Below, one piece after another: positions 995 to 20,382 of a stretch of 20,382 nucleotides of DNA. Location: contig JBBCAV010000428.1 of NCBI GenBank assembly GCA_051382305.1, forward strand, positions 1 through 20,382, in the 5' to 3' direction. Position 1 is the stretch's first letter, and each line of letters opens with the position of its first letter. Both the position numbers and the translations under genes were made by a program. The notes under the pieces were generated by a model. That model did no database searches, was not told where the DNA came from, and saw only the letters and a list, made by a program, of their open reading frames with translations. Origin of the DNA: Bdellovibrionota bacterium FG-2. GTDB taxonomy: Bacteria > Bdellovibrionota > UBA1018.

Positions 995-1082
995 TTAGGT
1001 TTCCTCCGATTTTAAACTGAGTTCCAGTTCCATGTTGCAAGTACGATGCAAACTCACAACGACTGCACTGCAAAAAAAACAG

Positions 1083-1111
1083 TTGCACCTTACGCGTTAT
1101 GTCTTTAGAAT
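1083..1111 (+). promoter_or_regulatory. Sigma70-type promoter of micropeptide module copy 1
   Basis: TTGCAC(1083-1088)-17 bp-TAGAAT(1106-1111), with an A-tract upstream. Conserved in copy 2. Confidence 0.75.
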
Positions 1112-1148
1112 CAAAACGTAACATCAACAACTAACCAAAGGAGCCAAC

Positions 1149-1184
1149 ATGGCAACCAAGAAAAAAGCTGCTAAGAAGAAGTAA
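1149..1184 (+). CDS. Lys/Ala-rich micropeptide MATKKKAAKKK (11 aa)
   Basis: AAAGGAG RBS at 1137-1143, ATG 1149, TAA 1182-1184. The paralog at 7337 differs only by synonymous changes plus an in-frame indel. Confidence 0.7.
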   Translation: MATKKKAAKKK

Positions 1185-1188
1185 ACCC

Positions 1189-1257
1189 TTCCCCACACTA
1201 TGTGGGTCATTAACAAGTGTGGGAGGCGGCACCCGTGTCCTCTCCCGACAGCTTCCC
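1189..1257 (+). ncRNA. Conserved 69-nt structured 3' RNA element, copy 1
   Basis: 63/69 identical to 7413-7481. Hairpins CCCACA/UGUGGG and GGGAGG..GGCA/UGUCCUCUCCC. Confidence 0.55.
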
Positions 1258-1263
1258 CTCACC

Positions 1264-3180
1264 TTAGTTGAAAGTTTCAGAGAGCCCTAGCGACACGACC
1301 GGAACGCGGGCCTTCGCAGGTACCTGATACAACTCAAGCACTGCGCTGTTAAGTTCCCCAAAAACATCAGAACTGAAGCCGCTCTCAAGCTGCCGCACAA
1401 TCTCCTCAATCTGATCCATAATGGGCTGTTGGGGCGCAGGAAACGGAAACTTTTCCAGATTTCCACGCAGCGTCTTTATCGAATTGAATTTGTTCTGATA
1501 ATAGAACTGTCCGAGCTGAGAGTTCAAAATCCCACAAATTGCCCGCAGCGAATAGCCGGGCAACCGCGGCAAAAGGACGTTAGCACTATTGAGGGTTAAG
1601 CGCTGTCCGCGGTCGATTGCAAAAACCAATTCTTTACAAATAAACCGGTAAACAAGCTTCTCCGCGACTCGATATTTATCCTCTGGAGCCACTTGCTGCA
1701 ATTCGTCTTTCTTAAAAAGCAGATGAGTGCCGGGGGTGCTAAGGCGAAAACGAAACACATCCGTGCCCTTAAGGATACACTCAAACCTATTTTTGGGAGC
1801 GTCCGACAGAAACCTCTCGTTATCCCCCGTCACAATTCCAAGCGCCCAATCAGCATTTCCTTTTAAGAAGAACGCTGCCTGCGCCTCCATATGCTTTAAG
1901 AGCCTGTCGCCAACTTCGTCTAAGCCAAAGGGAATGCAACTCTCTTCGTCAGCAATCAATTCGGAAACCGGCTTCCGAAGGAGCGATTTGTTTTCAATCA
2001 AAACCAAACTTTCTGCTTGGGGCGCGGTATTGCTTACCGTGATAGTGATGGCCTTCGTAAAGACGCCAGAGAATTTCTCAGAAACCGCTTTTACCGCCTT
2101 CAAATCATAATTCTTGAGAACGAATCTCCTAATGTCGCTATGAAGCTTTACATTCAAAAATGACTCTGGAAGCACAAACGACAGAACACCCTCGGGAGCC
2201 AGCATTTCCAACGACTTCGCTATGAAATAGGAGAATGATTCACCGGATTTAATTTCAGCATACTGCTGTTTCAAGCAGGTTTCATAATCGGGCGCAAAAT
2301 TCCCGCCCCAAGGGGGGTTTGTGCAAATAAAACGAAAACCCCCGCTAAACTGGGGGTCCTGCAAAGAGTCGCAACAAACTATTTGTTTAACTGAATTTGA
2401 TTTGCCCGCGCTGACCAGCGTGAGATTAGCTCTTGCGACCAACACTGCATTCATATCCAAATCGGCGCCAAATATCATCTCATGCGGTGATTCACCACCG
2501 ATTGCCTGAAGCCGCACAAAGGCTTCGATCAAGAAGCTACCGCTGCCGCAGCAGGGGTCGAAAAAGGTTCCAACTGACGTGACGGTTTCTGTCGCCATCT
2601 TCCGAATTAGACTCGGGGGCGTATAATAGGCGCCACCTTTTTGTTTATCTCCGACCAGGCTTAAGGTTTGATAAACAAAGCCCAGGGTATTATCTGAAAA
2701 ATCCAACTCAGCGGAACCGACCCAGGCATACGTCTTACCAAAAGTCTCGCATTGAATATCGACGCCCCAATCCCGTATCTCGTCATGGAGATGAGCCGCC
2801 TGAACCTTGAGTTTGCTGCCCCGAAACGAAATCAAGTTTAGGGCTTCCAAATGGCGAAAATAGAGCGCCAGCAAAAGATCTTTGGGTTCAAAAGAGTCAA
2901 AAGAAAGACGGGAAATCAGCCCAAGCAGTGGCAGCTCATTGCCCTTGTTCTCCAAAAGCTCCGAATGGGAGTGCGTTTGGGTATTTTGGTTCTTATTGGC
3001 CCGCTTTCGCAAGCGGCGAACTTCGCCCAGCGATATTTTTCCCTTAAGCGTGGTGACATCTGCCTCAAGAAAACAAAGTCCGCGGCTTGATTTACATGCG
3101 GGAACCAATCCGGATTTCACCCAGTTTCTTAGGGTCGCGGGTGACACCTCCAACAAACTGGCCGCATCGTTTATGTGCAT
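1264..3180 (-). CDS. N6-adenine DNA methyltransferase (gamma class, TaqI-like C-terminal TRD) with N-terminal HTH
   Basis: GAYYTP (motif X), FDPCCGSGSFL (motif I), NPPW (motif IV). N-terminal AASLLEVSPATLRNWVKSG is HTH-like. Start reassigned to ATG 3180 so the gene does not overlap its divergent neighbour. Confidence 0.9.
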   Translation of the reverse strand: MHINDAASLLEVSPATLRNWVKSGLVPACKSSRGLCFLEADVTTLKGKISLGEVRRLRKRANKNQNTQTHSHSELLENKGNELPLLGLISRLSFDSFEPKDLLLALYFRHLEALNLISFRGSKLKVQAAHLHDEIRDWGVDIQCETFGKTYAWVGSAELDFSDNTLGFVYQTLSLVGDKQKGGAYYTPPSLIRKMATETVTSVGTFFDPCCGSGSFLIEAFVRLQAIGGESPHEMIFGADLDMNAVLVARANLTLVSAGKSNSVKQIVCCDSLQDPQFSGGFRFICTNPPWGGNFAPDYETCLKQQYAEIKSGESFSYFIAKSLEMLAPEGVLSFVLPESFLNVKLHSDIRRFVLKNYDLKAVKAVSEKFSGVFTKAITITVSNTAPQAESLVLIENKSLLRKPVSELIADEESCIPFGLDEVGDRLLKHMEAQAAFFLKGNADWALGIVTGDNERFLSDAPKNRFECILKGTDVFRFRLSTPGTHLLFKKDELQQVAPEDKYRVAEKLVYRFICKELVFAIDRGQRLTLNSANVLLPRLPGYSLRAICGILNSQLGQFYYQNKFNSIKTLRGNLEKFPFPAPQQPIMDQIEEIVRQLESGFSSDVFGELNSAVLELYQVPAKARVPVVSLGLSETFN

Positions 3181-3225
3181 ATGCGGCCAACCTACCAGCC
3201 TCCCAATGTTCCCCACAAGCAAAAC

Positions 3226-3241
3226 TTTCAATGGATTGACA
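3226..3241. promoter_or_regulatory. Back-to-back -35 boxes with a palindrome between MTase and nuclease genes
   Basis: TCAAT-GG-ATTGA inverted repeat at 3228-3239 overlaps TTGACA (+, 3236-3241) and TTGAAA (-, 3231-3226). The matching -10 boxes are poor. Confidence 0.3.
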
Positions 3242-3274
3242 AGAGGGAAACCGCTCGGCATCGTTGGGAATATT

Positions 3275-3817
3275 ATGAACGCCAACAAATTCAGAGACGG
3301 TATCTTTAACTTAAAGACGAGAAGGCTCGGGAAGGTCGCCGAACTGATGATTCAGCGCCTCATCAGTTGTGGAAAAGGCAGGAGTCTATTCCATGACCTT
3401 TATGACGAGGATAAGAACCACCTGATCGAGGTCAAATTTTCAACGGTCAGAAAGAAAAATGACCGAACCCTTTCGGAAGAAACCGTTCTCAAGGGCATTG
3501 AAGACGAGCTAGCGGAAAATAGACAGGTAAGCTTCAAGAGCTGGAAGAATTTCACTTTCGACTGCAATATTCAGCAGATAAAAAAGGATCAGTTTGACAG
3601 CTTGTATTACGGCCTATTTTTTCATGATGTGGTCTTAATCTTCAAAATTGGGAGTCACGATATCACCAAAGAAAACCTCAACTATTCAGACAAGCAACAT
3701 AAGGGGAACAAGGGCGAAGGGCAGTTCCACATTAACCAAGACACCTTACCCAAGCACCTCAAGGACTACCTCTACAAACAAATCACTTATGAACAGTTGC
3801 TCGAACTCCTTCGATAG
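3275..3817 (+). CDS. Putative PD-(D/E)xK restriction endonuclease (180 aa)
   Basis: AELMI...HDLYD...IEVKFS pattern, adjacent and divergent to the MTase. The start is ATG 3275, since the longer ORF overlaps the MTase antisense. Confidence 0.65.
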   Translation: MNANKFRDGIFNLKTRRLGKVAELMIQRLISCGKGRSLFHDLYDEDKNHLIEVKFSTVRKKNDRTLSEETVLKGIEDELAENRQVSFKSWKNFTFDCNIQQIKKDQFDSLYYGLFFHDVVLIFKIGSHDITKENLNYSDKQHKGNKGEGQFHINQDTLPKHLKDYLYKQITYEQLLELLR

Positions 3818-3830
3818 GCGGGCCCCGGCA

Positions 3831-6095
3831 CTACGGGCTCCCAACGTCCAGTTCATGCACTGCCGCCCCCCCGAAAATCTCGCGGACCGCTGCCTTGATA
3901 CTTTCTTCTTTAGTAAAGATAATCACTTGCCATTCACTCTTTTTCTGAAATTCCGCGATCATTTTGAGCGCCTGCACCTCACGCTCCTTATCCATACTTA
4001 GAAAAGGCTCATCGAGCAGTAGCACAGGAAGTGGGCTCTTTAACTGCTCCGAGAGCGCGATCTTCACGGCCAGCAACAAAAGATCACGAGTCCCCTGTGA
4101 CAAATTCTGAGCCTCCCGACTCACCCCGCCCGCATCCCCCATAAAAACTAAAGAATCATTAAACCCAGAAGTGGCTACAAACCGCTCTTGCCCCAAAGCG
4201 AGTCTGATCAACTCTTGTACGCGCATGTTCACGCCATCCAGCCGATGAGAAGAATCCCTTTTCAGCTCTGAAAAAAGATCGGCTGCCATGCGCGCCCCCT
4301 TCTTGTCGCTTTCAAGCTCCAAAAGCTCTGCCTGAGCCCCGGCAAGATCCGCTTCCAGTCGGAGAATCGCCTCGGGAATGCCCTTCATCTCTCCCTTCAG
4401 AAGGCTTGACGACCCCTCCTGTTTCTTATCTCGCTCTGCAAACTCCGCGCGGAGTTTTTCATGGGCCGTCAATTTTGCGACGATCCTTTTTTCCAGCTCC
4501 TGAAGACTGGTATCAGTCATGAAGTCCTCGGGGACCTCTCCCTCATCCAATGTCTCGAGCGACCTAATCTGGGTTTCGACAAGCACTGACGCCTCAATGA
4601 CCGAGAGCGCCCCGAGCTCCGCCGGGAGAAGCCCCTTCTTCTCGAGAAGCTGGCTGGTCTTTTGCGCTAATTCTGCCTTCTTAATCAGATAGGCATCCTT
4701 GCCTTGGACTCCGATGCTCCTATAAAAAGAAGCTTCATCGTCCAAAACAATCTTCAGAGCCCTGTCAGCCTCTTCAAGCGTCATCGACTTCTTGTGAAGC
4801 TCCTCTTTACTGCTCGCCACCGTTTGGACTGACTCAAGAATCTGAGTTTCGAGAAGACGGTGCGCATTGACGATCTCGCTCAAGACCCCCAGGGCAGCAG
4901 AGGAGTTGCGGCCCTCAATAGGATGAGAGCTATACATGACGTTCCACCGGTTTGCTAGGCCACCCAGTTTGGTTTCCAGCGCCTGAACGTCCTTTACCAT
5001 CTCACTTCTTCTTGCCCAAAACCCAAGACCGCAGGCCACAACCACGCCAACCCCGATACAGATCAGATCAAGCGGACTTTGGGTTAAGAACGCAAGAATG
5101 ACCCCGATCATCAACGCCCCAAAAGCCATGCCGATTCGTGAACGAACCCAAGTGACCTGCTGACTAAAGCTCGGCTCGGCAATGGCCTGATTGATGGACC
5201 GACTTGCCTCCGCCGCCTCATCGGACATTTGTTTTAACTGGGAAAGCCCTGAATTCAGACGGTCATGCTTCTCCTTGGCCGTTGAGAGCACCTTTTTGAT
5301 TTCTTCAAGGCTGGCCCGCGTATCACCAAGTTCGCGCAATAACTTTTCGCGCTGCCCCTCAAATTCTTTGGGTTTGGCATCGCCCGCATTCCTCACCCCT
5401 GAAAACAACTCAATCTCTTTATCGAGAGCCATAATCGAATTCAGCGAGTTCCGATGCCTGATCAGTTCTTCTTTTTTGGCGTTGTGCTTCTTAGCAACCA
5501 GGCACCGCTTGAGCGCTTCAAGCTCAGAATTAGACTTGCCAATCTTAGCGGTAAGTTCTTTGAGCTGCTCCCCGAAATTGGAAATCTCCTTTTCCCGCCC
5601 CAAAATCTGATCGCGCTCTGCGACTTTGCCCAGCAGATCCTTACCAAGTTGGCTCAGCTGGAGTTTCGTCTCCTTGATCGCCCTCAAATGCTTATTATTG
5701 CCTGTTTCGGCACAAAGTTTCTCAAGTTTTCCTATTAAGGCATCCAGATCAATCCCCGCCAGACGACTAATGACGTCAGATTCCCAGTCGGCGTTATCGC
5801 CCAGCGTGACATCCCCGCTGCGAATCGAGTTCACATTCAAGAAATCCCCTACCCCAAGGACCTCACCGGGTACAGAGGGACCACTCAGCGTAACGGAAAT
5901 CTTATCCCCGTATCTAGAAATGATGCGCTTGCCCCAGACCGTCCCTTTTCCAGGGGAACAAAGGGAATTAAAGAAGGCATCGAAGAGTGTCGTCTTTCCC
6001 GCCTCATTTTTTCCAAAAAAGAGCGTACACCGAGCAAGCGGAAACCCCTTCTCGTTGAATTTGCCAAAATGCCCCAAATGAATTTTTTCGATCAT
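3831..6095 (-). CDS. SMC/Rad50-like ATPase (YhaN/SbcE-type) with central transmembrane hairpin
   Basis: Walker A GKNEAGKTT, signature LSQGT, Walker B LLLDEPF, long coiled coils and two hydrophobic segments mid-protein. ATG 6095 overlaps the upstream stop (ATGA). Confidence 0.85.
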   Translation of the reverse strand: MIEKIHLGHFGKFNEKGFPLARCTLFFGKNEAGKTTLFDAFFNSLCSPGKGTVWGKRIISRYGDKISVTLSGPSVPGEVLGVGDFLNVNSIRSGDVTLGDNADWESDVISRLAGIDLDALIGKLEKLCAETGNNKHLRAIKETKLQLSQLGKDLLGKVAERDQILGREKEISNFGEQLKELTAKIGKSNSELEALKRCLVAKKHNAKKEELIRHRNSLNSIMALDKEIELFSGVRNAGDAKPKEFEGQREKLLRELGDTRASLEEIKKVLSTAKEKHDRLNSGLSQLKQMSDEAAEASRSINQAIAEPSFSQQVTWVRSRIGMAFGALMIGVILAFLTQSPLDLICIGVGVVVACGLGFWARRSEMVKDVQALETKLGGLANRWNVMYSSHPIEGRNSSAALGVLSEIVNAHRLLETQILESVQTVASSKEELHKKSMTLEEADRALKIVLDDEASFYRSIGVQGKDAYLIKKAELAQKTSQLLEKKGLLPAELGALSVIEASVLVETQIRSLETLDEGEVPEDFMTDTSLQELEKRIVAKLTAHEKLRAEFAERDKKQEGSSSLLKGEMKGIPEAILRLEADLAGAQAELLELESDKKGARMAADLFSELKRDSSHRLDGVNMRVQELIRLALGQERFVATSGFNDSLVFMGDAGGVSREAQNLSQGTRDLLLLAVKIALSEQLKSPLPVLLLDEPFLSMDKEREVQALKMIAEFQKKSEWQVIIFTKEESIKAAVREIFGGAAVHELDVGSP

Positions 6096-7201
6096 AAAAC
6101 CTTTTTCAACTCTTGTAGCCCAATCATGCGGGCCTTCTCCCATATCGGGTAAGCCACATGGTCCCTCGCTGGTTTCTTGGCCTCGCAAAGCTCCAAAAAC
6201 CTTTTTGCCACGGGAAGCGCACTCACCCCCGCCAACACAATCACGTTTTCCGAGCTAAAGGAGAACCTTCGTATAGTTTTCCCAACGAACCGCTCCGTCA
6301 GCGCCGTCTCCAGCAAATGTAACGGATTCTCATCCTCGACGAGGCCACTGAAGCGAATCTCTACGTGGTCGTCTGGACCCCATTCGGGAGGAAACTCGTC
6401 ACTATAAAGGGGGGAATAAAGGGTAGAATCAAAGTTTAAGGGCGCGTCCCAGGTCCGGTATTGCCCTGCTTTTTTGAAGAAAACCCGGCTAGTGGTCAAC
6501 GTATCCGTGCATTCGATAAGCACCCCACCTCGTGGCCCGGTCTCCTTCTTCGTGCGCACTCTGGCAGAACCTGCATAACAAAGAATTAAGCCGCCCATCC
6601 GAATGGGTTGAGTGAGGGTATGCACATGCCCAAGAGCTGCGTAATCGACCTCATGCCGTAAGAAAACATCCCGATCCATCGCCCCAGCAGCCGTTTCTTC
6701 GTCCGGTGGAGGAAAACCCAAGCCTGAGAGCATGCCATGAGCCATCGCGATCCGAAATTTGGCCTTCTTGGGAGGAACCTTCCCCTGTGCAATCCAATCC
6801 CGATAGCCGCTGTATTCATCCTGATGTGGGATCGCCAGAATCTCCACCGCTGGATCGCCGGGAAGCAGCACCACCGACACCGGAGTCTCAGTAAACACCA
6901 GAGCAGGGTCGAAACGGGAGCGTTTGAACTCATTCATTGCACCGCCCGGTGCACCGCGGAGGACCTCATGATTTCCGGGAATAAAGCAGGTTTTTCCGCC
7001 AAATCTTGAAATGATTTTTCGAAAAGCTTCACTCAATTCTTTAACACTCTCCGCATCGTCAAAGACATCGCCACACAGAAGGAGATAGTCCGCCTTGAGC
7101 GCATTCGCCTGCTCAATGATCTCTTGAAGCACTCCGAGACTGTATTCTTTTTCCTCACCCGTGCTCAGATGAAGATCAGCAACATGCAGAAGTCGGGTCA
7201 T
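6092..7201 (-). CDS. Mre11/SbcD-like metallophosphoesterase nuclease
   Basis: HVADLHL, GDVFD, GNHE, AHG and GHVH motifs. GAGGAG RBS. Translationally coupled to the ATPase. Confidence 0.9.
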   Translation of the reverse strand: MTRLLHVADLHLSTGEEKEYSLGVLQEIIEQANALKADYLLLCGDVFDDAESVKELSEAFRKIISRFGGKTCFIPGNHEVLRGAPGGAMNEFKRSRFDPALVFTETPVSVVLLPGDPAVEILAIPHQDEYSGYRDWIAQGKVPPKKAKFRIAMAHGMLSGLGFPPPDEETAAGAMDRDVFLRHEVDYAALGHVHTLTQPIRMGGLILCYAGSARVRTKKETGPRGGVLIECTDTLTTSRVFFKKAGQYRTWDAPLNFDSTLYSPLYSDEFPPEWGPDDHVEIRFSGLVEDENPLHLLETALTERFVGKTIRRFSFSSENVIVLAGVSALPVAKRFLELCEAKKPARDHVAYPIWEKARMIGLQELKKVL

Positions 7202-7258
7202 TCAGTGTCTCCTCAAGAAGCGACACTACTCGATGGACAATGCGAAGGCAAAAAAAGG

Positions 7259-7287
7259 TTGCACCTCACGCGTTAAGCATTTAGACT
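7259..7287 (+). promoter_or_regulatory. Sigma70-type promoter of micropeptide module copy 2
   Basis: TTGCAC(7259-7264)-17 bp-TAGACT(7282-7287). The spacer motif ACGCGTTA is shared with copy 1. Confidence 0.75.
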
Positions 7288-7336
7288 AGAAAATGTAACG
7301 TCAACAACTGACACTAACCTAAACAAAGGAGCCCAC

Positions 7337-7408
7337 ATGGCAACTAAGAAAAAAGCAGCAAAAAAACCCGCTAAGAAAACCGCTAAAAAAGCTGCAAAAA
7401 AGAAGTAA
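7337..7408 (+). CDS. Histone H1-like Lys/Ala micropeptide MATKKKAAKKPAKKTAKKAAKKK (23 aa)
   Basis: AAAGGAG RBS at 7325-7331, ATG 7337, TAA 7406-7408. xAKK repeats. Confidence 0.75.
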   Translation: MATKKKAAKKPAKKTAKKAAKKK

Positions 7409-7412
7409 TCAA

Positions 7413-7481
7413 TTCCCCACACTGTGTGGGTTGTTAACAAGTGTGGGAGGGGGCATTCGTGTCCTCTCCCGACAGCTTCCC
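7413..7481 (+). ncRNA. Conserved 69-nt structured 3' RNA element, copy 2
   Basis: 11-bp stem GGGAGGGGGCA/UGUCCUCUCCC with a UUCG loop and two G-U pairs, so it folds on the + strand. A CCCACA/UGUGGG hairpin lies upstream. Confidence 0.55.
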
Positions 7482-7536
7482 ATCCTCTCCTCGTTCTTCC
7501 TCCCCGCCGCTCTTCTCTTCCCCTCTTAAAACACCC

Positions 7537-8769
7537 CTATTGATTCACAACACAACGGGTAAATATATTACCTTCCCAAAACTGATCACTCAGCGTGAAA
7601 AAGATGCCGTTGTCGTTAGAATATTTGGCTTTGCTAAAAACATCGACGTAACTGTCTTTTTCTTGGGTCCAAAAGCGCTGCTTTATATGAGGCAACATGG
7701 CTTCGATCTCGGCCGTGGAGTATGGATTATAGCCCGTGCCTCCATCGGCCATTTCCCAGCTGCGCCTAAATCTCCACAACTGTTTCACGTCTTCCCTCGT
7801 GGGTAAACGCCCCCCCTGCTTCTCGCACGCTTGAGCCGCATGGGCCTGATCCGTTGCACTCAGTACATCACCCCAAATCATGCCCTCAGGAGTTTTCCAC
7901 GATTCTCCAAACCCCGCACGGGCGACACGCTCGTAAACATTGGCCCCCCAGCTTGAAATCCGACATTTGAAACCAGGCCCCGCAGCCCTGAGTTGCAGTT
8001 CCGAATAGGAGGTACACAGACCCAACTCAGACGTAAATGGCGGAGAGACAGGGTCCGAAGTGTGGTATTGAAAGGTGTACGTGGGCCGCTCCGATAGTTC
8101 TCCGCTATAGATCTCCAAGTTCATCTGCTCAGGCTTCTTTGGGTCAATCTCAAGAACTATAAACTTTGGAAATAGGGCTTGCGTTAAATTCACTTCATTC
8201 AAGGCCCTGCAATTTGCGCCGCTGCAGACCTTGTCATCGGGATACAAACTCACCTTATCTAGAGAACTCATCAACAATGGATCCACGCTTGCGACACTCA
8301 GTCGTCTATTAAACCAGTCGGCCCCATCGATGGGTTTCTTGGGATCTATGAACAAAAGAAACCGATAAGACCCACCACAACCCATACTTTCTTGAACTGC
8401 GGGATAAATGGTTTCGCCGTACACGTAGTTTTTATAGGAGTTAGAAACGTACATCAGGGTCGCTACCGAACCAAACGCTTCGGCTTCAGTGAGCAAATGC
8501 ACTTGATCGACATTTACGCCCTCAAGAAAATCGGAACGATGAGAAACGAAAAGCTTCAATTTCTGCGAGATCACCGGAGTCTCCCCCGAGCCCCCCATCA
8601 GCTCGCCGTCATGAGAAACCTGCCACTCGCGCGCGGCTAGCATCGAACTTAAAACTTTGACGCCCCCTTTTGAGACGTGAGAAAAATGAGGTTTGCCCAT
8701 CCCAAAGGAGGTCACAGAACCGAGATACACGAAAAGGCCCATCATCAACATCCAGTTAGGTTTTTTCAT
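7537..8769 (-). CDS. Secreted hypothetical protein with C-terminal DUF1566/Lcl-like domain
   Basis: Signal peptide-like N-terminus. WKTPEGMIW...AAQACEKQGGRLPT...RFWT...RCV pattern. Confidence 0.7.
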   Translation of the reverse strand: MKKPNWMLMMGLFVYLGSVTSFGMGKPHFSHVSKGGVKVLSSMLAAREWQVSHDGELMGGSGETPVISQKLKLFVSHRSDFLEGVNVDQVHLLTEAEAFGSVATLMYVSNSYKNYVYGETIYPAVQESMGCGGSYRFLLFIDPKKPIDGADWFNRRLSVASVDPLLMSSLDKVSLYPDDKVCSGANCRALNEVNLTQALFPKFIVLEIDPKKPEQMNLEIYSGELSERPTYTFQYHTSDPVSPPFTSELGLCTSYSELQLRAAGPGFKCRISSWGANVYERVARAGFGESWKTPEGMIWGDVLSATDQAHAAQACEKQGGRLPTREDVKQLWRFRRSWEMADGGTGYNPYSTAEIEAMLPHIKQRFWTQEKDSYVDVFSKAKYSNDNGIFFTLSDQFWEGNIFTRCVVNQ

Positions 8770-11252: not shown

Positions 11253-11395
11253 TGTTCCGTCCCACCTAATCGGCCCCCTTTTTAGGGGTTATATTCCCAG
11301 GTATTCAGCCCCCACCCCGGCAGCGTGTTTTGAGGGCTCTATTCCCACATAAACAGCCCCCTCCGGAAGGGGTTCATTCCCAGGTATCCAGGCCC
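11253..11395 (+). repeat. Four ~20-bp sub-terminal transposase-binding repeats at the IS21 left end
   Basis: TCCCA(C/G)nTAnnC..GCCC units at about 11260, 11295, 11343 and 11378. Two inverted copies lie at the right end (13921-13940, 13945-13964). Confidence 0.8.
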
Positions 11396-11446
11396 TCGGT
11401 CGGCCGCTTATTCTGATCCCAAACTTAACCAAGAGAGGGGTCATGC

Positions 11447-13126
11447 ATGAAGCAGGCAAACGGGAGGCATCGAATGGATCGCAATATTTTGGATCGGCTG
11501 GCAGCGGGGCGTGGAGTCAAATCGATATGCAAGGAACTTAAGGTCGGCAAGGACCGCGTTCGTGAAATCAGGAAGAAAGGCATCGGGGCACACTACCTCG
11601 CAACCGATGGCAGTTCGGCAGGCACGGAGCCAGTTCCAGTCATGCCGCTTGCGGTATTCCCGGATATAATTGACCGGCGTCACCACAAGAGCAGTGATGT
11701 CGACCAAGCCCTTCTTTCACATCTGGAGTGGCTCAAGGAACGGATGATTTCAGGATGGAGTCCAATCACCGTCTTCGAAGAACTCCCATGTCCCGGCATC
11801 ACTCGATCAAGTTTTTATCGCTTTTTAGTTAGGCATGAACTGCACAAGCTTCTTAAGCAGAAGAATCTCGATGATTTAAGTGGCCCCATAGTGCACCTGC
11901 CGGGCGAGGCATTGATTTTAGATTGGGGTAAACTCCGTGACGTCATAGACCCAAAAACAGGTGAGAAGCGCACTTTGTGGGCCTTTGTCGGCGTGATGGG
12001 CTTCTCTCGTTATCTCATGATTCGACTTGTTTGGACCAATAGCGTGCCCGTCACTTGCGATGCCATCGAGATCATGTTGCGAGAGCTGGGGGGCACCCCA
12101 AGTCGAGTGACAAGCGACAATCCAAAATGTTTTTCACTGAAGGCAGATATGTACGACCCCCTTCTTAACCCGGCATTTGAGAGGTTTGCGGTACATTACA
12201 ACAATTTTAGAATTGAATGCCTGCCTCCGGGGGAGCCGAAGAAAAAAGGAAAAGTGGAGCGGATGATGCCATTTGCTCGAAGGTTATTTGAAGCCTATCC
12301 AAAGACTTTTGTCTCCATCGAACACGCTCAAGCCTACATGGATCGTAAATGCGCCATAGCTAATGAGCGCCGTCACGGGACGACGTGTCTCAAGCCTATT
12401 GAATTTTTCCTAAGTCAGGAAGTCCAGACGCTGAAGCAGCTCCCTGTTTTAGCCTATGAACGTGAGGAAATTGCTTATCCCATAATTCGCCAGGATAGGT
12501 TTGTCAGATTTGCGAACAAATATTACGCCGTCGCGGACGAATTCAAGGGGAAGGACGCGGTGGTTCTAGGCACCTCTTCGCGCGTTTCAATTTTTGCGCA
12601 AGGACGCCTTCTCGAAACCTATGATCGAATCACCTCTCAATATCAAATACACGCTATTCACGATCACCTTAAAAAACCGTGGCAAAAGATCGAGGAAAGC
12701 AATGCTCACTTTATTCGTAGAGCTGAGGCAATTGGGCCCGCTTGCGGTCGCATGATTCGTGAAGTCCTGATGAAGGGGGATGGTTTTGTCGATACGCGCA
12801 TTGTTTGGGGCGTGTTGGCGCTGGATAAAAAATACTCAGCCGCGGCCGTTGATGCCGCTTGCGATGCCGCCCTGGAGATTGGCAAGCTTTCCTCTCGTTT
12901 TGTAGAGCGACTTATTCGCCTCACGGCATACCCCAAAAACTCTTCGCCCACGCCAGTTACTCCGGTCGCCACGGCGGATACATCAAAAACTGAATCACAA
13001 AAAACAACAGAAACATTTAAGTTCGCCCGCCCTATGAGCGTTTATCAAGAACGTATTGAAGAGCAGGCAAAACCCGGCCTACGTTCGCTACCCCCTACAG
13101 GGCAGCAAGCGCAGGCCATTACGTAA
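11447..13126 (+). CDS. istA: IS21 transposase IstA
   Basis: N-terminal HTH; DDE motifs ILDWG, TSDNPK, KGKVER. Confidence 0.92.
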   Translation: MKQANGRHRMDRNILDRLAAGRGVKSICKELKVGKDRVREIRKKGIGAHYLATDGSSAGTEPVPVMPLAVFPDIIDRRHHKSSDVDQALLSHLEWLKERMISGWSPITVFEELPCPGITRSSFYRFLVRHELHKLLKQKNLDDLSGPIVHLPGEALILDWGKLRDVIDPKTGEKRTLWAFVGVMGFSRYLMIRLVWTNSVPVTCDAIEIMLRELGGTPSRVTSDNPKCFSLKADMYDPLLNPAFERFAVHYNNFRIECLPPGEPKKKGKVERMMPFARRLFEAYPKTFVSIEHAQAYMDRKCAIANERRHGTTCLKPIEFFLSQEVQTLKQLPVLAYEREEIAYPIIRQDRFVRFANKYYAVADEFKGKDAVVLGTSSRVSIFAQGRLLETYDRITSQYQIHAIHDHLKKPWQKIEESNAHFIRRAEAIGPACGRMIREVLMKGDGFVDTRIVWGVLALDKKYSAAAVDAACDAALEIGKLSSRFVERLIRLTAYPKNSSPTPVTPVATADTSKTESQKTTETFKFARPMSVYQERIEEQAKPGLRSLPPTGQQAQAIT

Positions 13127-13143
13127 GAAGAGAGGAAAAATTG

Positions 13144-13905
13144 ATGGAACTCGAAACGATTCGAATGCAGCGTTCTCAGCTCCGGCTTCCCACCGCAGCC
13201 AGAGAACTTGAAGAGGTCTTGTCTAAACAAAAAAAAGCGGTCTCGCTGGCATGGGTCTCTGCGCTCTTGGAAAGAGAGATCGATGCCCGACGCGAGTCCA
13301 GTCTAAAATCGAAGCTTAAGGCGGCAAAGTTCCCAGTACTCAAAACCTGGGAGACGTTCGATTTTGACTTTAACCCGCATCTTGATCTCGATGGCCTCTC
13401 AGAACTGAAGACATTGGCATTCGTCAGGCAGAATCAGATTATTCAGTTTCTAGGGCCCCCAGGAACGGGCAAATCCCATTTGGCGACTGCGCTGGGCATC
13501 CTCGCCACGAACCAAGGACATCGAGTCTATTGGACCTCTGCGAAGAAGCTCCAAAAGCAAATCATTGAAGCTAGACTCAGAAACAACTTGGATGATTTGT
13601 TCCGCAAGATCCTGGCCGCCAAACTGTGGATCTATGATGATTTTGGGGTGGTCACTTACAGCCGAGAGGTCGCCGAGGAGGTCTTCGATCTTCTGGATCG
13701 ACGCAAGCACTCCTCCGCTCTCATCTTGACCTCAAACCGCGCAGTCATTGAATGGCCTTCCGTCTTCCCAGATCTTGTCCTCGCCAATGCGACAATCGAT
13801 CGCATGTTCGAACAATCAAGATCGTTCATATTCAATGGTCATAGTTATCGGCTGAAAGGCAAAATTCACACACCGGAGGTTGACGAGGAAAAATTAAACG
13901 GCTAA
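13144..13905 (+). CDS. istB: IS21 helper ATPase IstB
   Basis: AKFP..KT.E.FDF, Walker A GPPGTGKSHLA, Walker B IYDDFG, TSN, GHSYR. Confidence 0.95.
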   Translation: MELETIRMQRSQLRLPTAARELEEVLSKQKKAVSLAWVSALLEREIDARRESSLKSKLKAAKFPVLKTWETFDFDFNPHLDLDGLSELKTLAFVRQNQIIQFLGPPGTGKSHLATALGILATNQGHRVYWTSAKKLQKQIIEARLRNNLDDLFRKILAAKLWIYDDFGVVTYSREVAEEVFDLLDRRKHSSALILTSNRAVIEWPSVFPDLVLANATIDRMFEQSRSFIFNGHSYRLKGKIHTPEVDEEKLNG

Positions 13906-13971
13906 AGCACGCGCACGACCGGGGCCTGAATATCTGAGACGAAGAGGGGGCCGGTTATGTGGGACGCGACA

Positions 13972-14112
13972 GTTTATCCTCTTGCTTCAAACTTCAGAAT
14001 ATCTCTCAGCACCTGACAGCCACGCCTGCCCCAACAAAGTTGAATTCGAGCCGCTCAGATTTCCCATTGCAGTAATGTCTTCGCTCCTTCAAAAGATGTG
14101 TGTAATAGACAG
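13972..14112. mobile_element. 141-bp remnant of an IS4-family (IS50-like) element ending in its terminal IR
   Basis: 14089-14112 is the exact reverse complement of 20287-20310. The terminal 19 bp match the Tn5 mosaic end at 17/19. Peptidase-like coding starts right after it. Confidence 0.7.
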
Positions 14113-19533: not shown

Positions 19534-19608
19534 TGGTGCGAGTGACAGGGATTGAACCTGTGACCCCGCCCGTGTGAAGGGCGTGCTCTCCCGCTGAGCT
19601 ACACTCGC
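19534..19608 (-). tRNA. tRNA-Val, anticodon CAC, CCA encoded
   Basis: GCGAGTG/CACTCGC acceptor stem, anticodon arm CGCCC-TTCACAC-GGGCG, GGTTCAATCC T-arm, 3' ACCA. Confidence 0.96.
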
Positions 19609-20286: not shown

Positions 20287-20382
20287 CTGTCTATTACACA
20301 CATCTTTTGAGTCCAAGAATGTTATGCGCGGTATTCTGAAAAATACACTGGACACAGGTTGATTGTTTTGTTAACCTCTGCG
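20287..20382. mobile_element. Start of an IS4-family (IS50-like) element running off the window
   Basis: CTGTCTATTACACACATCTTTTGA terminal IR, identical in inverted orientation to 14089-14112. Confidence 0.7.

Follow-up and report, generated by a model that had tools for sequence, protein, structure and literature searches.

Among described bacterial proteins, those closest in make-up to the gene products considered here belong to the Hc2 (chlamydial) and H1-like families (PF07382, NF038052, NF038053), which use an alphabet of K, A, T, V and P in short KKK-x-x repeats, with no acidic or aromatic residues. The tail of AlgP is likewise lysine-rich and H1-like, and ScvA of Coxiella, a tiny basic peptide associated with the nucleoid, is rich in Arg and Gln and, compared by description, unlike the lysine-only peptides below. 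In a 20,382-nucleotide (nt) contig of Bdellovibrionota bacterium FG-2 (JBBCAV010000428.1, assembly GCA_051382305.1; the whole stretch is called the window here), two paralogous cassettes each carry a micro-open reading frame (micro-ORF) for an oligolysine peptide, of 11 amino acids (aa) in copy 1 and 23 aa in copy 2. Micro-proteins of this kind share the alphabet, the repeats and the lack of acidic and aromatic residues with Hc2 and H1-like proteins; they differ in being 5-15 times shorter (11-27 aa), in being encoded by stand-alone genes and in matching no profile. Because the profile test failed, they are not members of Hc2, and would be better regarded as a miniature, stand-alone variant of the lysine-rich H1-like kind, with a function presumed from that likeness.

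Three other groups of small described products invite comparison. The ribosomal proteins bS22, eL41 and Thx are 25-33 aa long, very basic, often missed by annotation and strongly expressed, and a micro-ORF version found in Chitinophagaceae-like genomes lies in a ribosomal protein operon; the window peptides differ in being lysine-only, without hydrophobic residues, variable in length and multi-copy, and in matching no solved chain. According to the source papers, bS22 has ~30 aa and 61% K+R; its Flavobacterium form has 30 aa, that of Borrelia has escaped annotation, and further bS22-type proteins are predicted by the authors for other bacteria (PMC10618245, PMC7797042). The second, bL38 (DUF4295, PF14128), is similarly a small basic protein encoded by the third gene of a ribosomal protein operon, but, according to an excerpt of the same literature (PMC7797042), it is a 5.6-kDa beta-hairpin protein encoded behind rpmB-rpmG, whereas the micro-proteins are encoded behind rplU-rpmA or near non-ribosomal genes; its profile PF14128 gave no Pfam match for the two peptides tested. 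Attenuator leader peptides of the his, trp and thr type also combine a short ORF rich in one amino acid with hairpins behind it; the micro-ORFs differ in that no downstream gene reads in the same direction as they do, either in the window or at the ancestral locus described below.

Searches for the family itself agree with the earlier note on this DNA, which had not recognised it as a described system. No Pfam or NCBIfam family was matched by any micro-protein tested at E-values up to 10, phmmer returned 0 matches for three peptides against all PDB chains at the same limit (a test weakened by the low-complexity query), and there was no Rfam match. Seven exact micro-protein sequences from four clades, the window's own 23-aa peptide being outside the seven, were absent from a collection of ~15 billion proteins. 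Family peptide strings had no match in the main texts of the papers searched, and no relevant described family was found there; the sORFdb paper does not mention lysine. The low complexity of oligolysine peptides blunts every sequence search of this kind.

We favour the reading, at a probability of about 0.55, that both loci are transcribed and translated micro-genes whose product is an abundant nucleic-acid-binding polycation, comparable to a free tail of the H1/Hc2 type, and that the hairpins behind the ORF make or protect the 3' end. Each locus would be its own transcription unit, a cassette of ~190-240 bp with a promoter, a short leader bearing a strong Shine-Dalgarno (SD) site, the ORF and a double hairpin. 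The cassette would have arisen within the genus from a conserved single-copy gene for an oligolysine micro-protein of 21-26 aa, made of MA(T)KKK and KKK-x-x units. Its product would be an unstructured lysine-rich peptide, neutralising the nucleic acid to which it binds, either on the nucleoid or on mobile-element DNA, and the G+C-rich hairpins after the stop codon would make or shield the short mRNA's 3' end and block read-through into the convergent gene.

The evidence that these are genes begins with the two window units (1072-1260 and 7250-7484, + strand), each of which consists of an SD site, an ORF and a two-hairpin 3' element, and whose alignment begins at an upstream A-run and takes in the whole 3' element (repeat family D1, 107 nt, 86%). 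All the cassette parts named in the earlier note (TTGCAC-N17-TAGAAT, AAAGGAG, MATKKKAAKKK, a 3' element and a second copy) lie where it had placed them. The SD sequence AAAGGAG occupies 1137..1143 and 7325..7331, in both cases with the ATG 5 nt further on, and the ORFs run from 1149 to 1184 (11 aa, MATKKKAAKKK) and from 7337 to 7408 (23 aa, MATKKKAAKKPAKKTAKKAAKKK), both ending in TAA. Alignment bears out the in-frame 36-nt length difference reported earlier, a single gap, alongside three substitutions (ACC/ACT, GCT/GCA and AAG/AAA); that these are all synonymous had been rightly noted, but the count had been two, AAG/AAA having been left out.

The source genome is a draft of 433 contigs (named C57, C103 and so on) and is 85% complete. 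Further cassettes lie on its contigs C266 and C385, and on C322 and C244 of the sister species G001; with the unit recurring on two more contigs and twice in a sister species, the repeat is not a matter of chance. The 23-aa peptide is identical in copy 2, C266 and G001 C322, and the 9 variable DNA sites are all third-position and synonymous, although, of the 198 single changes possible in the ORF, only 42 would leave the peptide unaltered. The two 11-aa copies (window copy 1 and C385) differ at 2 sites, both synonymous. Since substitutions are confined to synonymous third positions, selection acts on the peptide. The 11- and 23-aa forms are related by loss or gain of an in-frame repeat block, so that length is labile and frame is kept. 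The earlier proposal of selection on translation is borne out by this synonymous-only change in both length classes and by retention of SD, ATG and stop in 27 of 30 syntenic pyrD loci; the micro-ORFs, which it had thought too small for normal annotation, are genuine coding genes under purifying selection and are indeed unannotated.

The description 'present twice' is right for the window and falls short for the genome, which holds 8 micro-ORFs beginning MATKKK, for the family, in which an ancestral gene is widespread, and for several phyla, in which similar ORFs occur. A whole-genome scan for lysine-rich short ORFs gave 59 rows, 9 of them with MATKKK, corresponding to 8 loci (one locus has two alternative starts). 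All 8 have a GGAG-type SD at a distance like that of copy 1, and their lengths range from 11 to 25 aa. Four are not cassettes and have unrelated flanks, namely those on C57 (25 aa), C103 (22 aa), C298 (23 aa, of the ancestral type) and C425 (21 aa); the last two are followed by a hairpin and T-run terminator. As C298 and C425 end in ordinary terminators, the common denominator is the peptide and not the RNA element. Orthologues in G001 of the genes flanking the window cassettes (OsmC and a 410-aa protein) have no cassette beside them, and the C385 cassette locus is common to G001 C244. Several cassette copies lie at the ends of contigs, and there may therefore be more of them than were counted.

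The C298-type gene provides the wider conservation. An ORF-based survey of its orthologues covered 29 loci, at which it is convergent with pyrD in 27, has rsmB beyond in 24 and is divergent from an NtrY-like histidine kinase gene in 18. A second survey was anchored on pyrD and took the best 30 pyrD loci in the order without using the peptide pattern, which removes circularity; 27 of the 30 hold exactly one K-rich micro-ORF, convergent with pyrD. These 27 ORFs encode 21-26 aa with an MA(T)KKK start, and their 622 residues comprise K374, A116, T85, M27, V11, S5, R2, G1 and H1. Upstream, 23 of the 27 have TTGATN-N15-18-TAACAT at 55-106 nt before the ATG and 21 have a run of six or more A; the SD of nearly all is ACGGAGG, and a G+C hairpin with a T-run follows the ORF, the terminator scan finding a two-sided terminator after the source genome's own ancestral copy. 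Stops are TAA in 14 of the 16 orthologue ORFs scored. Judged from sequence, these are the signals of a well-expressed independent gene. Twelve of the 27 begin MATKKKA[AT]KKK, and over their codons 1-11 the mean entropy at positions 1, 2 and 3 is 0.06, 0.00 and 0.72, the choice of ORFs with this start capping variation at codon positions 1 and 2.

Composition and neighbours bear on what the peptide may do. The 8 peptides of the genome contain K87, A41, T16, M8, V4 and P3, with no R, D, E or aromatics, in a genome whose long ORFs have 5.76% K and 5.96% R. The product is ~60% lysine, with a net charge from ~+6 (11 aa) to ~+14 (23 aa). KKKxx-repeat proteins of 56-143 aa that open with the same MATKKK give sub-threshold HC2 or H1-like matches, those to HC2 lying in proteins of 91-143 aa: 29.5 and 18.5 bits to HC2 against a cut-off of 40, and 13.9 to hist_H1_lk_Burk against 80. 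The H1/Hc2-type make-up proposed in the earlier note is thus sustained by the restriction to K, A, T, V and P, by these longer relatives and by one SWIB fusion. The fusion is a 143-aa protein of G337 (L035:1105-1533(-)) with an MATKKKATKKK start, ~60 residues of KKKxx repeats and a C-terminal SWIB/MDM2 domain; the Gemmatimonadales record L082 has a similar layout.

Two of the 8 micro-ORF copies lie within 1 kb of HU/IHF-family genes, of which there are 10 matches in 4.3 Mb. On C425, HU is followed in turn by an RNase H-like gene, the micro-ORF and TraG/TraD, and the C57 copy is convergent with an IHF-like gene. Other extra copies adjoin a DDE transposase, a PLD nuclease and an SF1 helicase with an RNase H domain. 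Taken together, composition, longer relatives and neighbours favour a DNA-directed polycation that would be carried in part by mobile DNA. The C425 locus (L184:1797-2892) may be an operon of the HU-family gene, the RNase H-like gene (RVT_3) and the 21-aa micro-ORF, placed after a terminator and before TraG/TraD; the TraG/TraD coupling protein looks like part of a conjugative element. With respect to other polycations, spermidine synthase was not found in this 85% complete genome, and two genes of Orn/Arg-decarboxylase fold are present.

Breadth was surveyed at two levels. Within the phylum, 401 genomes were sampled with an exact DNA pattern for MATKKKA[AT]KKK. It matched 36 of them, with 32 of 57 in the family of the window, 3 of 100 in another family and 0 elsewhere; the reversed pattern, used as a control, matched 0 of the 401. 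Across phyla, a scan of one genome per species, with residues 1-11 fixed by the pattern and clade labels taken from the records, found at least 118 stretches. Among the matches listed, to which all counts in this paragraph and the next refer, there were 110 complete ORFs: 85 of up to 31 aa, 7 of 32-60 aa and 18 longer, with an SD-like site in 70 of the 85 short ones. Similar short ORFs in other phyla have 13-31 aa and differ in type from clade to clade, each type having conserved neighbours of its own. Terriglobales / Acidobacteriaceae have MATKKKAAKKKKH (26 loci, with yggX and merR) and MATKKKAAKKKKKH (10 loci, with unannotated neighbours); MATKKKAAKKKATKKKAAKKK occurs in Steroidobacteraceae and 'Proteobacteria' (6 loci, with an EVE-domain gene and rpiA), MATKKKAAKKKTAKRK in Omnitrophota / Planctomycetales (3 loci, with a hemN-like radical-SAM gene), and MATKKKAAKKKAAPKKKAAKKKK and longer forms in Chitinophagaceae / Bacteroidota (11 loci, with rplU-rpmA). 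A record labelled Oligoflexia carries a 24-aa gene of the window-family type. By their sequences, these matches are many real micro-genes of one design across phyla.

Two of these types deserve description. The 13-aa Terriglobales ORF MATKKKAAKKKKH (L065, L078-L080, L087, L088 and others) has an SD and a terminator and lies between a divergent yggX and a merR-family gene; it is among the shortest conserved ORFs that we have seen, and a 14-aa form occurs in 10 more loci. In Chitinophagaceae-like loci the ORF is MATKKKAAKKKAAPKKK…, of 23-44+ aa, and in the 13 loci where rplU and rpmA were found (L063:3890-4745, L067, L086, L091, L093, L101, L119, L128, L135, L145, L160, L162 and L171) it lies 95-140 nt after rplU-rpmA on the same strand. 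At L063, the one locus scanned, no terminator-like site separates rplU-rpmA from the micro-ORF, and the first one comes after it. The Chitinophagaceae-like ORF may be an unrecognised third gene of the rplU-rpmA ribosomal operon.

The cassette's own expression signals are of mixed clarity. In copy 1 a UP-element-like A8 run (1072..1079) lies upstream of the promoter candidates, and copy 2 has an A7 run (7250..7256); an A-run is also present upstream in C266 and G001 C322. Promoter candidate P1 is TTGCAC (1083-1088), 17 nt and TAGAAT (1106-1111) in copy 1 and TTGCAC (7259-7264), 17 nt and TAGACT (7282-7287) in copy 2, spanning 1083..1111 and 7259..7287 and matching the sigma-70 consensus at 8/12 and 7/12 positions. 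The hexamers and their 17-nt spacing are kept in 4 cassette copies, the spacer sequence having diverged in G001 C322. A consensus promoter scan of both window regions did not call P1, but it was too strict to decide, as it also missed the TTGATC/TAACAT promoter of the ancestral gene. Behind P1 lies a motif, GTAACATC at 1118..1125 in copy 1 and GTAACGTC at 7295..7302 in copy 2, which could be the start region of P1 or the -10 element of a second candidate, P2 (TAACAT at 1119-1124; TAACGT at 7296-7301, with TG before it). The 8-mer GTAAC[AG]TC occurs in the window solely at 1118 and 7295 and is rare in the genome, with 50 found against ~132 expected. We regard P1 as plausible but ambiguous, with the P2 -10 matching the conserved promoter of the ancestral gene; given the match to that -10 block, the transcript may start near 1118 (from P1) or near 1131 (from P2). 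What was earlier presented as the promoter therefore holds as to real and conserved hexamers and spacing, but its consensus match is weak and a second -10 candidate competes with it.

The 3' element is conserved over ~73 nt and ends at ~1257 in copy 1 and ~7481 in copy 2. Hairpin 1 (1192..1206 and 7416..7430) has a 6-bp stem, CCCACA and TGTGGG around the loop CTA in copy 1, and is invariant in the stem in 5 of 5 cassette copies, with a varying loop base. Hairpin 2 has 11 bp; in copy 1 (1221..1246) it is G+C-rich, with a 4-nt loop, one C·C mismatch and no U-run behind, and in copy 2 (7445..7470) it is perfect, including 2 G·U pairs, with the loop TTCG. For both hairpins 98.8% of cells are paired (5 copies, 87% identical), and in the sister species A-U stands in place of two G·U pairs. 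Folding energies of the element are -23.0 to -29.6 kcal/mol, with the + strand the more stable in 4 of 5 copies (-29.6 on + against -21.7 on - for copy 2), and the whole transcripts fold mildly better than shuffles (z -1.59 and -2.87). The linker between the hairpins (1207..1220 in copy 1, where it is partly palindromic only, TCATTAACAAG) contains a palindrome at 1207-1217 and 7431-7440 of the window and ~1669-1678 of L032. It reads TTGTTAACAA in three copies of the source genome, one clipped by a contig end, TTATTAACAA in G001 C244 and TGTATACA in G001 C322; its centre changes from TA to AT between species with self-complementarity kept, a single event, and a dimeric protein could bind there, or RNA could dimerise through it. 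As CCCACAC has two possible GTGTGGG partners, again a single event, two folds are possible.

A covariance model of this element, run on the genome and its relatives (75 family genomes), matched 2 of the 75, solely its own training copies in one genus; two metagenome pattern scans, one for the 3' element and one for the leader with the ORF start, returned 0 stretches. An Rfam E-value scan of the whole window found no described RNA family at either locus, its sole match being a tRNA (19537-19608). The element occupies the site of ordinary terminators in other family members, a few bases before the stop codon of the convergent gene, and is probably a genus-specific hairpin forming or protecting the mRNA 3' end and not a second RNA function. 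The earlier suggestion of a dual-function peptide-RNA gene is not supported: the element is missing from 73 of the 75 family genomes, intrinsic terminators replace it elsewhere, and there are no compensatory changes. Copy 1 faces the 3' end of a convergent DNA methyltransferase gene, 1264-3288(-), and copy 2 that of a convergent gene of unassigned function, 7537-8769(-). The cassettes bracket 1264-7201(-), which encodes a helix-turn-helix N6 methyltransferase with a TaqI-like specificity domain, an SMC-type ATPase (785 aa) and a metallophosphoesterase (369 aa), the last two an SbcCD-like pair.

Several observations weigh against a translated DNA-binding polycation with a hairpin-made 3' end. 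The proposal of DNA binding is drawn from composition and neighbours. The micro-ORF that follows rplU-rpmA in 13 Chitinophagaceae-like loci among the matches listed, with no intervening terminator-like site at L063, points to the ribosome rather than the nucleoid. Three of the 30 pyrD loci have no micro-ORF, one of them a locus that ends 137 nt past pyrD and the others those of G290 and G008. In the 3' element, 0 pairs have changed on both sides, among 5 near-identical copies for which the shuffle control is uninformative, and a scan of both window regions for intrinsic terminators found 0 terminator-like sites at the cassettes, the hairpins being without a U-run. Finally, with residues 1-11 fixed by the search pattern, common descent and convergence of a low-complexity peptide are undistinguished across phyla.

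The alternative that survives best, which we nevertheless consider unlikely, is a ribosome-bound micro-protein, a lysine-only analogue of bS22, eL41 or Thx that would fill a pocket in ribosomal RNA (rRNA) or shield rRNA phosphate charge. Size and charge resemble bS22; the ancestral gene is near it in length (21-26 aa) and in being single-copy, and has strong expression signals (ACGGAGG, the A-run, TAA stops); and the rplU-rpmA arrangement described above, on one strand with a terminator at L063 only afterwards, speaks in the same direction. Set against this, arginine accounts for 2 of 622 residues and hydrophobic anchor residues are absent, and for the three peptides compared phmmer gave no match to any solved chain, ribosomal proteins included, a test that low complexity weakens. 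Lengths of 11-25 aa within one genome and of 13-31 aa and beyond across clades, together with 8 paralogues that include 11-aa forms, fit a fixed rRNA pocket poorly. In Bacteroidota, according to PMC7797042, bS22 (Fjoh_1533) and bL38 are already encoded elsewhere. Beyond Chitinophagaceae, the genes nearby are non-ribosomal (pyrD and a histidine kinase gene, yggX and merR, an EVE-domain gene and rpiA). A crude scan of the 85% complete genome for basic ORFs of 20-51 aa with an SD gave no convincing bS22-like candidate outside the oligolysine family. The different loci, the lack of arginine and hydrophobic residues, the variable length and the missing solved-chain match rank a ribosomal role second, behind the nucleic-acid polycation.

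It is rather improbable that the 3' element has a role of its own, whether as a small or protein-binding RNA, as a regulator's DNA site at the palindromic linker or as a structure for cassette mobility or recombination. It is the best conserved part of the cassette, its G·U pairs stabilise the + strand in 4 of 5 copies, the linker palindrome survives the swap of TA to AT, the alternative CCCACAC pairing allows two folds, and cassettes occupy non-orthologous sites in two species as well as contig ends. These points are outweighed in our judgement by its restriction to one genus, by the empty metagenome and Rfam searches, by the lack of any pair changed on both sides, by cassette ends with no transposase, terminal inverted repeat or target duplication, and by a micro-ORF family that works without the element everywhere else. 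An integron attC or miniature inverted-repeat transposable element (MITE) identity for the cassette was considered and dropped, since its ends have neither terminal inverted repeats nor core sites.

A polycation used in conflict, either an exported antimicrobial peptide or a mobile-element peptide that masks DNA from host defence or silencing, might be suspected from the extra paralogues, which adjoin the DNA methyltransferase and SbcCD-like pair, TraG/TraD, the transposase, the PLD nuclease and the SF1 helicase with its RNase H domain. We think this very unlikely: no signal peptide or export gene stands next to any copy, and the ancestral copy is a housekeeping-type chromosomal gene found family-wide. 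Hardly likely at all is a regulatory leader ORF, in which attenuation would link lysyl-tRNA or translation stress, sensed through ribosomes slowed on the lysine codons, to a switch in the hairpins behind them. A lysine-codon run does lie directly before hairpins with alternative pairing, and the 13-aa Terriglobales ORF is followed on its strand by a terminator and a merR-family gene; but both window cassettes and 27 of 29 ancestral loci have a convergent gene next to them, which leaves nothing downstream to regulate, and the restriction of non-lysine residues to A, T, V, S and P points to the peptide itself, and not just its lysine codons, as the object of selection. Least credible is a non-coding repeat with an accidental ORF, which the tiny, A-rich ORFs might suggest but which the all-synonymous, third-position variation, the SD, ATG and stop conserved at 27 of the 30 syntenic loci and the 0 of 401 genomes with the reversed pattern contradict.

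The rest of the window holds other repeated and mobile sequences. An IS21-type element at 11260-13964 includes an istA-like gene (rve / Mu transposase C-terminal domain; 11447-13126) and istB (13141-13905); two 74-nt direct repeats (11260-11333 and 11343-11416) precede the istA-like gene, and a 21-nt inverted repeat (11343-11363 / 13944-13964) probably marks the ends of the element. A perfect 24-nt inverted repeat, with arms 6.2 kb apart at 14089-14112 and 20287-20310, encloses genes for an M28 peptidase, a response regulator, a TonB-dependent receptor and a CHASE8 histidine kinase, and the tRNA at 19537-19608(-).

Beyond the window, we entertain tentatively, and as a doubtful proposition, an unnoticed and widespread class of encoded oligolysines of 11-31 aa in the Oligoflexia-type family, Terriglobales, Chitinophagaceae, Steroidobacteraceae-like Gammaproteobacteria and Omnitrophota. 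These would act as counter-ions for DNA, rRNA or polyphosphate, in the manner of polyamines or a free H1 tail, and in the genus studied here a portable cassette would be spreading with mobile and defence DNA. If such a class exists, its members would be among the shortest conserved stand-alone bacterial genes. If the peptides are made, bacteria of several phyla would have a conserved class of genes that no standard gene caller keeps, and would possess abundant polycations able to change nucleoid compaction, ribosome charge or the behaviour of mobile DNA. Chitinophagaceae and Acidobacteriota would gain a candidate extra ribosomal or nucleoid component, and the window cassettes would offer an example of a micro-gene amplified as a cassette inside one genus.

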